Source: Octopus vulgaris
Lineage: Eukaryota
Reading direction: 5' to 3'
DNA length: 64,000 nucleotides
Assembly: GCA_951406725.2 (NCBI GenBank)
Contig: OX597832.1
Coordinates: 28,892,001-28,956,000 of the forward strand
The notes beneath the pieces were generated by a model. The model was not told the origin of the DNA. It made no database searches and saw only the letters and a program-made list of their open reading frames with translations. Positions 3,084-55,853 of the stretch are shown one piece after another. Within the stretch, counting starts at the first letter, position 1. The number at the start of each line of letters is the position of its first letter. A program made the translations under genes and the position numbers.

Positions 3084-4394
3084 GGGTATATATAGCCGTT
3101 ATATATGCTACTAATTATATTTCTACGCATTATTTATTTCGCAATTTCCCCGTTATTTACACAAAATTACTCCCACATGATCAACACAGACTTTTCTTCC
3201 AATGTCCAAGACACACCAAAAATAATTAGGTTCCTTGGTTTTCGTTCTTGTATTTTACCTTTTATTATATTTCCTCGTCTACGTTGATCCATTCAATATC
3301 TGATAACACTTATTTCCCCCCAATTAATAAGCGAAATACCAAAATTGAAAAATCTCAACGACTAAAAATAGCTAAATATAAGTTTGGCAGCAGCGTTGAG
3401 GTAAATTATTCAACAAGTCATAGATTATAAAAGACAATTCTTGAGAAAATGGTAAGAGCAGAACATTAATCACCAAGAAGAAATTACAATTACAAAAAGG
3501 CAAAAAAAAAATGACAAAAAACCCCCGGAATTCTGAATAAATTTACAAAACAAAATTTATAAACCATTTATTCTTTTACGAGAAAACATTTTTAACAGAT
3601 TTTATATATATTTATTATCATCATTTTTATATTATTATTGCTGCTGTTGTTGTTGTTGTTGTTATTTCTGTTGTTGCCGACAAAAAAAGAAATTATTACT
3701 ACTGCTACTACTACTGTTGTCATTAATCTTTGTTATTGTTATTCTTTTGGTAATAACTGAAGTATTTCCTTTCCGTTTAATTGTGAACTAATGCAGAACA
3801 TTTGTCAATAGGTGGCGCTATTGATGACAAATAGTAAAGCTTCAATTACAACTTTCTGTCGCTGCTGCGGTTGCTCTTCTTCTCCTCCTTCTCCTCCTTC
3901 TCCTCCTCCTTCTTCTTCTCCTTCTTCTTCTTCTTATTATTTTGTTCTTGTAGTTGTTGTCTTGTTATTCTTATTATGTTCTTGTTCTTGTAGTTGCTGC
4001 TACTGTTATTTTTATTGTTGTTGTTGTCGATAATACTATTGTTCTTGTTCCTGTTGTTGTTTTTCTTCTTCCCCACCCTTCCCCACCAACCCCCAATCCC
4101 ACCATCATTAAATCCATTAATCTTTCTCCCTCAGCTGTTCATTGTCTGCAATTTGGCGAGCTTTCGTTTTTTTTTAATCTTTTCTTTTTTTTTCTTTCTG
4201 CTAATGAAGAATTAGGTCTGCTGTACGACATTGTTTTTTTCTGCATCATTGTGATTCCATATGATCGCATTTACGACGGTCAAAGATGGCTGCTTGAACC
4301 AGAGGTTGGGCTGGCGGCTGAATGATAGCCGGTTCGATACATGCCACCAGCCGTACCCGGGGTCCATAATTTAACTCACCCGGTCAAATAAAGT

Positions 4395-4540
4395 TTAAAA
4401 AGCAAAGTTACATTCTCAAGTCATGCTGACTTATAAGGGCCGGTTACCCGGTTTTCATGGGGCATATATCCCCACCCTCGCCCCTGGATGGGACACCAGT
4501 CTGTCACAGGATAACTCATTTTTGCCATCTGAGTCCACCC
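4395..4540 (-). mobile_element. SINE fragment: group C-type body joined to the tail type seen in group D copies at 29.1 and 40.3 kb
   Basis: aactcatttttgcca.ctgagt matches group C. ctggatgggacaccagtc and ggccggttacccggtttt match 40320-40385. Confidence 0.55.
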
Positions 4541-4655
4541 AGTTTTATGAAACAATATTAATTGTATTTCAGGGTTTCATACAAACACTCCAAAATACGT
4601 AAATGTGTTTCTGTAGATTTATGCAAATATGTAAAGATTTATGCAAATACATATG

Positions 4656-4886
4656 TATTTCTTTATTGCCCACAAGGGGCTAAACACAGAGGGGACAAAC
4701 AAGGACAGACAAAGGGATTAAGTCGATTACATCGACCCCCAGTGCGTAACTGGTACTTAATTTATCGACCCCGAAAGGATGAAAGGCAAAGTCGACATCG
4801 GCGGAATTTGAACTCAGAACGCAGCGGCAGACGAAATACTGCTAAGCATTTCGCCCGGCGTGCTAACGTTTATGCCAGCTCACCGC
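4656..4886 (-). mobile_element. tRNA-derived SINE, group B
   Basis: Reverse complement of ggcggtgagctggca...gagttcaaattccgccga.gtcgactttgcctttcatcctttcggggtcgataaattaagtaccag..., with a B-box-like GAGTTCAAATTC. TSD-like gcaaata(c/t)atatg on both sides. Confidence 0.9.
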
Positions 4887-4956
4887 AAATATATATGTAC
4901 GCTTATACATATATATGTACGTTTGCAATGGACACACATTTGTCAGATATAGATAG

Positions 4957-5279
4957 GAGCATTCCGTCGGTTACGACGATGAGGGTCCCAGCTGATACGA
5001 TCAACGGAACAGCTTTGCTCGTGAAATTAACGTGCAAGTGACTGAACAATCCACAGACACGTGCACCCTTAACGTAGTTCTCGGGGAGATTCAGCGTGAC
5101 ACAGAGTATGACAAGGCTGGCCCTTTGAAATACAGGTACAACTCATTTTTGCCAGCTGAGTGGACTGGAGTAACGTGAAATAAAGTGTCTTGCTCAAGGA
5201 CACAACGCATCGCAGGGAATTGAACTCACGACCTTACAATCGTGAGCCGAATACCCTAACCACTAAGCCACGCGCCTTC
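4957..5279 (-). mobile_element. tRNA-derived SINE, group C (full length)
   Basis: Reverse complement of the 27724-28052 copy. tRNA-like head with A box TGGCTTAGTGG and B box GAGTTCAATTC. Confidence 0.9.
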
Positions 5280-43660: not shown

Positions 43661-43889
43661 CTGCATGCACGTTGTATCATTGTGAAATAATAACGTGGAA
43701 TAATAATGTGTTGAGGGAGAGGATGAGTACAGAGTGAGTACAAAGAGTACGGGTGCGGAATAAGTACAAACAGAGAGAGAGAGAGGAGGAGAGATGAGTG
43801 TAAAATGAGTCAGGAGAATAAAGAAGTTTTGAATGAACAGAGAGAGAGAGAGTGGTATACGGCGGCTCAACGTAAGCAAATTACGCAGT

Positions 43890-44273
43890 GGGGCGGGTGG
43901 TGGCGCTAAACCGTGATAAGTGAAGCAGCAATGTCATTTTGGGTCCGAATATGTTTGGTGCACATTCGGTGCCATTCCTCGTACGGTGATTAGAAAAGCA
44001 TAAGAGAGGCGATCCCTTAATGCAGCCGTCTGTTTAGTGTCTGTGACCGATGAGGAGACAACCACTCCGAAATCTTAACATCTCACAGTCTAGGTAGGTG
44101 GCGCTGCGAGCTGATCTAAGTGTATACGCACCATTTGTCAACAAGCGAGATATATTCCCTGTGACGAAACGCAGTGAGTAGCTTGTTCCCCCAGTTCGAA
44201 CATGCATCGAGCATATTCGGATGGATAATGGCATTGCAGTCTCACTTATCACGGTTTATCGCTCCCCCTCCGT
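43890..44273 (+). mobile_element. Retrozyme-like element: ~380-nt foldback with a central type I hammerhead
   Basis: Terminal arms pair: TAAACCGTGATAAGTGA 43907-43923 with TCACTTATCACGGTTTA 44242-44258, and TCCGAATATG 43944-43953 with CATATTCGGA 44212-44221. HHR at 44041-44088. Homologues at 55232-55820. Confidence 0.7.
44026..44101 (+). ncRNA. Extended type I hammerhead ribozyme
   Basis: CTGTGA-CCGATGA-GGAG acaacca CTCC-GAAA-tcttaac-ATC-TCACAG; predicted cleavage after C44082. Stem I continues past a TGT/T internal loop into 12 bp (44026-44037 with 44090-44101) containing 5 G-U pairs. Confidence 0.8.
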
Positions 44274-44336
44274 CAATATTTTATAGCTTCGTAAACCCAT
44301 AGCAACACAATATGGAATATATATGAACGAAATATG

Positions 44337-54977: not shown

Positions 54978-55180
54978 TTCATCTTTTACTTGTTTCAGTC
55001 ATTAGACTGCGGCGAAGCTGGAGCGCCACCTGGAAGGAATTTAGTCGAACGAATCGACCTCAGTACTTAGTTTTTAAGTCTGGTACTTATTCTGTCAATC
55101 TCTTTTGTAGAACCGCTAAGTTACGAGGACGTAAACACACCAACTGCGGTTGTTAAACGGTGGAGGGTAACAGACACAGT
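54978..55180 (-). mobile_element. SINE group A, 3' half
   Basis: cttttacttgtttcagtcattagactgcgg...gaaccgctaagttacg.ggacgtaaacacacca. Confidence 0.85.
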
Positions 55181-55373
55181 CACGTAGCACCACACATACA
55201 GCGCTAGAGCAGTGATGAGTTTAAAAACAAATGTCGCCAGTTCAAGTATGCTTTAAGTATATTCGAACCCGTGAGGAAGTGATTCACTGAATTTTGTGAT
55301 GGAGATAATTTCTTGCTCTGTAGAGAGACAGTTGTAAACAGACTGAGTCATTTCGCAGCTTTCCCAAACAAAA

Positions 55374-55421
55374 GTTGTGGGCGCATGCATTTCGGAGTAG
55401 TTATCTCCTCCTCAGCACCAG
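55374..55421 (-). ncRNA. Type I hammerhead motif (GGAG/CTCC family), decayed
   Basis: Minus strand: CTGGTG-CTGAGGA-GGAG ataacta CTCC-GAAA-TGCATGCG-CC-CACAAC. Canonical core; U16.1 is C. Confidence 0.7.
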
Positions 55422-55631
55422 AAACCCGAACGGCAGACGTTGCGAACTGACATGAGAAACAAATCCCTTTTATTATACACCCGTCATCGTACAGTGATTG
55501 ATTGCGCCATTCGGTGGCTCGGCGTAATTAAAATACACGACACGTCACTGCTTCGCGTTTTCGTCCCGTATTTTCAGCGAGGCGCCGATTTGAGCAGCCA
55601 GTGATAGTATGTATGTATGCCTTTCCGGTGT

Positions 55632-55679
55632 CTGGTGCTGGAGAGGAAATAACTACTCCGAAATGTAGGCACCCACCAG
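55632..55679 (+). ncRNA. Type I hammerhead motif (GGAG/CTCC family), decayed
   Basis: CTGGTG-CTGGAGA-GGAA ataacta CTCC-GAAA-TG tagg CA-CC-CACCAG. Perfect 6-bp stem I; A6 is G and U16.1 is C. Confidence 0.7.
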
Positions 55680-55821
55680 TCTTGTTTGGGAAAGCTGAGA
55701 ATTGGCTCAGTGTGTTTGCACTTATTTGTCTGCAGCAAGAAACTTTTTCCATGACCAAAATAAAGTGAACAGCTTCATCATGAGTTCGAATATGCCTCAA
55801 GCATAACTGAACTGGTAACAG

Positions 55822-55853
<32 letters not shown>

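Follow-up and report, generated by a model that had tools for sequence, protein, structure and literature searches.

The window analysed here, the whole 64,000-nt stretch of Octopus vulgaris DNA, carries near 55 kb an inverted pair of related sequences, each with a hammerhead-shaped motif, and near 44 kb a further copy with a third such motif (Table 1). The original prediction described the 55-kb pair as two inverted arms of ~205 bp, which would leave a spacer between them. Homology of the arms was confirmed at 162/205 ungapped columns (79%), with an alignment score of 226.5, where 300 dinucleotide shuffles reached at most 36. The pair is therefore real; however, its arms are longer than proposed and stand head to head, and the supposed spacer belongs to the arms themselves. 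The left arm matches the majority sequence of subfamily A (defined below) at 282/342 ungapped columns, and the right arm matches its subfamily majority at 243/299, with ~46 nt deleted at 55610-55615. The proposed relationship of both arms to the 44-kb copy also held (148/216 and 119/176 columns, with scores of 86.5 and 99 against a shuffle maximum of 35.5), and the 44-kb copy turned out to be a head-to-head inversion too, its minus-strand piece lying against the main plus-strand copy. The shared string 'cattcggtg' (43963 and 55508), which had been counted towards this relationship, is non-homologous: it straddles the inversion junction at 44 kb and lies antisense inside the left arm at 55 kb.

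Table 1. Features of the hammerhead-bearing copies near 44 kb and 55 kb (positions within the window; unit coordinates refer to the repeat unit of the respective subfamily).
Feature	Position	Strand	Description
Inverted 5' piece	43851..43968	-	unit 114-222; 90/109 ungapped columns match; abuts main copy
Subfamily B copy, 343-bp unit	43967..44283	+	wraps from unit 219 to 196; its outer end is the long 3' site; 281/312 ungapped columns match majority
Hammerhead, type I	44041..44088	+	C4 variant of the core; full pairing in stems I and II; loop III palindrome with one change; predicted to cut after 44082
Left arm	55198..55542	-	whole 344-bp unit, subfamily A, wrapping from unit 179 to 181; outer end close to the 'long' 3' site
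Hammerhead, type I, damaged	55374..55421	-	core intact except C16.1; stem I 4/6 pairs; G16.2; predicted cut after 55380
Head-to-head junction	55540..55542	.	3-bp overlap of arms, zero spacer
Right arm	55540..55834 (end about)	+	wraps from unit 160 to about 160; its outer end is the 'short' 3' site, followed by (TA)n
Hammerhead, type I, damaged	55632..55679	+	G6 and C16.1; A-C mismatch in stem II; stem I 6/6 pairs; predicted cut after 55673
Hairpin copy, predicted	55783..55812	+	fold of both subfamily majorities, unit ~109-139 (about 105-140), directly upstream of the short 3' end

Neither poly(A) nor a target-site duplication was found beside the 55-kb pair, the longest candidate being a 7-bp chance match away from the ends, and the pair contains no direct repeat with two hammerheads. 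RNA reading through both arms would form a long hairpin that buries one of the two ribozymes. The 5' strand of the hairpin at unit ~105-140 resembles the B box of polymerase III promoters; a search of the 64-kb window for tRNA genes returned none. The window of this 2.8-Gb genome is rich in microsatellites, by which the repeat search was swamped. Directly to the left of the pair, positions 54990-55190 are occupied by a very high-copy repeat, with a summed contig depth thousands-fold that of the pair, which recurs across the window and presumably resembles a common SINE or LINE end.

Hammerhead-shaped motifs are present at all three predicted positions, with stem II and loop II as claimed, and a relaxed hammerhead descriptor run over the window recovered these three together with three weaker, chance-like matches elsewhere. 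Rfam hammerhead models returned nothing at E<=10 in 55150-55830 or 43840-44300, and the best 150 of 376 Rfam matches over the whole window were microsatellite-driven miRNA matches. Single-strand folds of the three motifs were no better than those of shuffled sequences (z -1.1 to -1.2). Stem I was predicted to be CTGGTG/CACCAG at 55 kb; this is correct for the plus arm, whereas the minus arm reads CTGGTG/CACAAC and forms 4/6 pairs.

In the family to which these copies belong, the majority hammerhead has a CUGAAGA or CCGAUGA core, GAAA and an AUC triplet; its stems I, II and III are 6, 4 and 2 bp long, and a palindrome of 6 nt caps stem III. When compared with the type I core criteria (C3 U4 G5 A6 N7 G8 A9, G12 A13 A14, A15.1-U16.1, H17), the subfamily A majority is canonical and the subfamily B majority differs by C4 alone, a natural variant known from a viroid (PMC3088659; this and other published work is cited from the accessible portions of each paper). 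Most subfamily B copies have C at core position 4, as at 44 kb, and the U4 and A5 variants also seen are what CpG decay of the C4 form would give. Across the family, 18/95 copies passed the strict core test, or 25/95 if C4 is allowed, and loop III is a perfect palindrome in 54/95 copies, with three main sequences; the palindrome is kept while its sequence changes between subfamilies.

Neither 55-kb copy has an intact core: each has C16.1 where the family has U16.1, and the plus arm has G6 in addition. C16.1 occurs in 8/77 other subfamily A copies. It fits the looser NHH cleavage-site rule, NUH being preferred (PMC3923133), while in another account motifs of this type were rejected and low activity was given for a change at position 6 (PMC3088659). 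Judged from their cores, both 55-kb ribozymes probably have little or no activity left, and since they lie on opposite strands they cannot pair up within one transcript.

The extent of the family was assessed by DNA searches of the genome, in which the pair, the 44-kb copy and a stretch lacking the ribozyme served as queries and gave 740, 648 and 922 first-look candidates, respectively (40 scored for each). A 24-letter stem II pattern had 118 exact matches, compared with 0 for the reversed control. All family counts given here are lower bounds; ten duplicate loci were dropped before the 78-locus counts, and further duplicates before the 100-, 123- and 124-locus counts (L112 before the 123). 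There are two related units, A of 344 bp (the 55-kb type) and B of 343 bp (the 44-kb type), which are alike at 259/349 columns. Copies begin anywhere in the unit and wrap round, as in a circular permutation. More than one unit is present at 38 of the 78 unique loci, and direct dimers occur at, for example, L008, L009, L021 and L053; no large tandem arrays were found among the sampled loci, where long-lived arrays comprise only 1-2.5 units. The unit is non-coding, its longest stop-free stretch being 66-68 codons, and the family is old, most copies being 75-93% like the majority, which has a G+C content of 46%. Thus, the 55-kb and 44-kb copies represent two subfamilies of one dispersed non-coding hammerhead repeat. 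At one locus, L129:439-1842, 60-75-bp pieces of the unit are arranged at ~200-bp spacing round one main copy.

The ends of the copies follow a definite pattern. Among fragments of at least 80 bp, 75/107 3' ends fall in unit 145-165 or 183-201, compared with 9/107 5' ends, in intervals drawn after the histogram was seen; the centres of the two clusters, near 155 (short) and 192 (long), are ~37 nt apart. Inverted pairs, whose frequency was at issue in the original prediction, are common: 33 of 123 sampled loci are head-to-head, one is tail-to-tail and 90/123 are not inverted, with the inverted share biased by the type of query (6/25, 14/28 and 5/25, and 5/28 in a later set). The gap between inverted pieces ranges from -6 to +25 bp at 26 junctions. 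One short and one long outer end were found in 17/17 classifiable cases of 29 inversions (p=8e-6), the other 12 having an end outside both intervals; with four new inversions, two short/long and two unclassified, the total is 19/19 classifiable and 14/33 unclassifiable. The 55-kb pair, with outer ends at unit 181 and 160, follows the same rule. Microsatellites adjoin 36/161 3' flanks and 310/2061 background stretches, a weak enrichment.

This anatomy resembles that of Penelope-like elements. The tail of such elements was shown in vitro to equal the distance between two reverse transcription start sites, with both strands cut and extended, and has been called unique to Penelope-like elements (PMC11167929); among them it is common to find, right at the 5' end, an inverted copy that is itself 5'-truncated (PMC8557442). 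Penelope-type mobilisation, as read from the insertion anatomy, is well supported. In vitro, the start sites of the Anolis enzyme did not differ between the two strands (PMC11167929), so the strict short/long rule is not predicted by that property alone. We found no statement of such a pairing rule for inversions in the accessible Penelope literature and, judged by listing, no published account of Penelope elements with twin priming. The rule is open to testing and hints at the way in which the two start sites are used by Penelope complexes.

The family was compared with three described systems. Metazoan non-LTR retrozymes (PMC7229834; bioRxiv 10.64898/2026.07.22.740005) are similar in having a ~340-bp non-coding unit with one type I hammerhead each, head-to-tail repeats, dispersed monomers and co-occurrence with Penelope-like elements, and the 343-344 bp of the octopus units fall in their 170-400 nt criterion. 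In contrast, the octopus copies are old, comprise only 1-2.5 units per locus and have a G+C content at the edge of the '<45%' described. The accessible portions of Cervera and de la Pena 2020 and of Li, Clavereau and Pollet 2026 contain no description that we could find of tails or inverted ends of retrozymes. Insertions of EN+ Penelope-like elements (Craig et al. 2021, PMC8557442; Frangieh et al. 2024, PMC11167929) share 5' truncation, partial tandems, an adjacent inverted 5'-truncated copy, an optional 30-40-bp tail and the lack of a clear target-site duplication; unlike them, the octopus repeat has no ORF and no linked autonomous element. The type I hammerheads of Penelope-like elements (Cervera and de la Pena 2014, PMC4209133) likewise combine stems I and II of 6 and 4 bp with a stem III of 1-2 bp, whose palindromic loop serves cleavage as dimers, although loop III is 6 nt here and 2-4 nt in the canonical motifs. 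The same paper reports opposite-strand motif pairs 100-700 bp apart and families 'full of covariations'.

We conclude, with a probability of roughly 0.8, that the 55-kb pair is a decayed head-to-head copy of the dispersed non-coding 344-bp hammerhead repeat, likely a single old non-LTR retrozyme insertion made in trans by a Penelope-like reverse transcriptase-endonuclease. The pair is not an autonomous Penelope element; by sequence it satisfies the definition of a non-LTR retrozyme, for which a circular RNA and cleavage are predicted. A look for RNA records carrying the repeat listed none, a result that is neutral as to expression. A source copy would have been transcribed as multimeric or circular RNA, whose hammerheads would cut as dimers through the palindromic loop III. 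A Penelope protein would then nick both strands of an AT-rich or microsatellite target, and reverse transcription would start at two fixed RNA sites, the long one on one strand and the short one on the other. The two cDNAs would stop at variable points and be joined end to end, giving unequal back-to-back arms that drifted apart after insertion. The compensatory changes in stem I and loop III presumably arose in the source lineages, where cleavage would be under selection.

Opposite-strand hammerhead pairs, 5' inverted copies and Penelope-dependent retrozymes are already in print. In the accessible literature on octopus hammerhead ribozymes no description of this family was found, and the supplements of PMC4209133, PMC7229834 and PMC8557442 may list it. 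The 55-kb locus in itself matters little, being one decayed copy among at least several hundred. The family matters as a further hammerhead repeat that shows the complete footprint of Penelope insertion, and so lends support to the connection proposed between retrozymes of animals and Penelope enzymes.

An alternative that shares the Penelope enzymology is that the arms are solo pseudo-LTRs, that is, 5'-truncated 3' ends of an autonomous Penelope-like element. A type I hammerhead, a tail and 5' inversion are all Penelope features (PMC4209133, PMC8557442), retrozymes have been proposed to derive from pLTRs (bioRxiv 10.64898/2026.07.22.740005), and the genome itself offers a perfect inverted end at L096, where a 100% identical 766-bp inverted repeat (1821-2586 and 4218-4983) flanks a Penelope ORF fragment, a recent case with the same insertion geometry. 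We nevertheless consider this origin improbable, because at the 38/78 loci with copies longer than one unit the extra sequence wraps into a second unit. The suggestion in the original prediction that the arms are termini of a Penelope element fails on the same point: the 5' extension leads into another 344-bp unit, not into an ORF. No RT + GIY-YIG sequence was found in the window or linked, within about 1.5 kb, to 123 of 124 family loci. At the one remaining locus, L058, the unit stands beside Penelope ORF sequence with a TA run between them, and 29 sister copies of that sequence lack the unit, which identifies it as a chance neighbour. A search for an autonomous partner sharing the unit found none with 150 of 6136 GIY-YIG candidates scored. 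Likewise, the predicted Penelope-like element with RT and GIY-YIG domains that shares the hammerhead and 3' end was absent from the 44 GIY-YIG loci and stretches examined, among which the only match to the unit was a weak 60-bp flank match in L102.

The genome holds many RT + GIY-YIG elements, some with intact-looking 781-aa frames. One young Penelope-like family (L091-L094 and L103, in G000:C16, C17, C9 and C1) encodes RT + GIY-YIG in a 781-aa frame, upstream of which lies another of 330-380 codons. Its 3' region contains internal tandem repeats, and many of its copies have identical GIY-YIG scores. The descriptor found no canonical hammerhead in its ends; this family and the other examined GIY-YIG loci have no sequence in common with the unit and were rejected as the partner. 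At L092:5230 (-) (G000:C16 near 33686700), a different hammerhead-like motif with a long loop II and a palindromic loop III lies on the strand opposite a 781-aa Penelope ORF and ~1.2 kb downstream from it; the motif was not found beside other copies of this family.

Twin priming yields head-to-head inversions in LINEs. The repeat could accordingly have been moved by a conventional LINE (e.g. RTE) with L1-style twin priming, and the failure to find a Penelope partner among the scored candidates favours such a source. The two fixed internal 3' ends ~37 nt apart, combined with circular permutation, argue against it, as do the lack of poly(A) and of a target-site duplication beside the pair and the tail, unique to Penelope-like elements according to PMC11167929; altogether we regard a LINE origin as quite improbable.

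The original prediction left open whether the pair is an old event or two separate insertions, and a single old event agrees better with the data. If a second, independent insertion had landed at the 5' end of an earlier one, this would account for the divergence of the arms, which differ at 21% of non-CpG sites and whose plain identity (212/276) lies within the range of unrelated copies, being equalled or exceeded in 5/65 comparisons with other copies. However, the arms share 13 derived states compared with 4.6 expected (P=9e-5), the maxima among 62 other copies being 12 and 11, and units repeated directly in tandem are equally diverged: for inverted arms versus tandem units, divergence is 21.6% and 23.2% in subfamily A (p=0.24) and 14.9% and 12.8% in subfamily B (p=0.13). 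On this comparison, there is no support for the view that the templates of inverted arms were more distant than those of tandem units. The abutting junctions, the 33 head-to-head inversions against one tail-to-tail, and the short/long rule add to the case, and two insertions are largely refuted. C16.1 is among the derived states that the arms share, so the template of the single insertion may already have carried a weakened ribozyme, which would fit the observation that insertion in vitro does not require cleavage (PMC11167929).

The age of the pair is illustrated by contigs of organism E (3 runs from 3 studies), which span 55345-55700 in one piece with 21-22 differences (~94% identity); the pair is thus older than the split from this other organism and is not an artefact of assembly. 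Of the 19 differences listed, those in the ribozymes are at 55382, 55648 and 55668, with E keeping the family letter each time; none is listed at the minus-arm C16.1 or the plus-arm G6, and position 16.1 of the plus arm falls close to where the piece ends. Such conservation could mean that selection maintains the locus, whether as a ribozyme cassette working in both directions or as a long RNA hairpin that serves the host. The ribozymes have 3 listed differences in 96 bases compared with about 18 in 260 others (p=0.21), read-through RNA is predicted to form a long hairpin, and in the family cores are spared even within insertions (see below). Host selection is, however, highly improbable in view of the core damage in both arms and of the three ribozyme positions at which E has the family letter and this genome the decayed one, and a long hairpin is the trivial outcome of any inverted repeat. 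A MITE-like DNA transposon with hammerheads in its terminal inverted repeats by chance, which an inverted, non-coding, dispersed element of about 640 bp might suggest, is refuted by the unequal arms, variable junctions, direct tandems, the 90/123 loci that are not inverted, systematically different outer ends and the lack of a target-site duplication.

The original prediction took three changed base pairs in stem I as evidence for selection on the fold. The inner three pairs are indeed GTG/CAC in both 55-kb arms and TGA/TCA at 44 kb, and selection is supported for the source lineages of the family, by whole-pair changes and a spared core, but not for the 55-kb locus, where both ribozymes have suffered damage and decay continues. 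The A and B majorities show 8 differences at 30 paired positions; these make up 4 whole pairs, with zero one-sided changes (P=2.3e-4; the palindrome counted as pairs). In 84 aligned ribozymes, obtained after 11 of 95 rows were left out (10 with an indel-shifted register and 1 duplicate), 84.3% of cells are paired, compared with 77.2% in shuffles and 28-53% with slid partners. Two-sided changes number 11, 24 and 27 at the inner stem I pairs and 22 and 29 at two loop III pairs, counted as sequences, not events.

Ranked by covariation among 57,964 column pairs, the stem I pairs stand at 20, 238 and 2636 (A) and at 325, 303 and 656 (A+B), and the outer loop III pair ranks low. Since stem I thus ranks high but not top and the outer loop III pair low, column covariation alone is inseparable from descent; the scan over all columns picked up lineage signal for the most part and revealed no clear new helix. 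Among the inner triplets with full pairing are TGA/TCA in 18 copies, GTG/CAC in 4 (two of them the window arms), TGG/CCA in 2 and TTG/CAA, the A majority, in 1. With such single-pair intermediates in the family, the three-pair difference in stem I can be crossed one pair at a time and need not have been one jump; a one-base register slip would give it as well.

Conservation of the catalytic core points in the same direction for subfamily A. With pattern-selected loci left out, and at loci found without a ribozyme in the query, core divergence is 12/237 compared with 169/1174 upstream (p=3e-5). After matching of trinucleotide context the core still differs at 13/360 compared with 380/3811 elsewhere, by which sequence context is rejected as the cause. 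In subfamily B, core sites are not less divergent than other sites. Units within one subfamily A insertion differ at 22-23% of non-CpG sites, compared with 25% between loci; at core A/T sites within insertions, however, 3/70 differ compared with 419/2343 (4% versus 18%; p=0.001; about ten pairs). Plain decay after insertion does not predict a core spared in this way. Mixed templates, selection after insertion or residual sampling bias could produce it.

One tentative reading, which we think unlikely to be right as a whole, would join these observations with the insertion rule. An inverted insertion would record a two-headed Penelope complex primed at the long site on one strand and at the short site on the other, and its units would stem from diverged RNAs of a quasispecies-like pool filtered for a working ribozyme. 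Such a pool would explain why subfamily A units within an insertion are almost as diverged as unrelated ones while their catalytic core is spared. If true, it would amount to genomic evidence for the RNA-level variation asked about by Cervera and de la Pena 2014.

A third sublineage of the repeat was observed at L106, L107, L110, L111, L117, L119 and L130. It combines an A-type core with a B-type stem I, has a near-palindromic loop III (GCUUGC) and is 72-78% like either majority.
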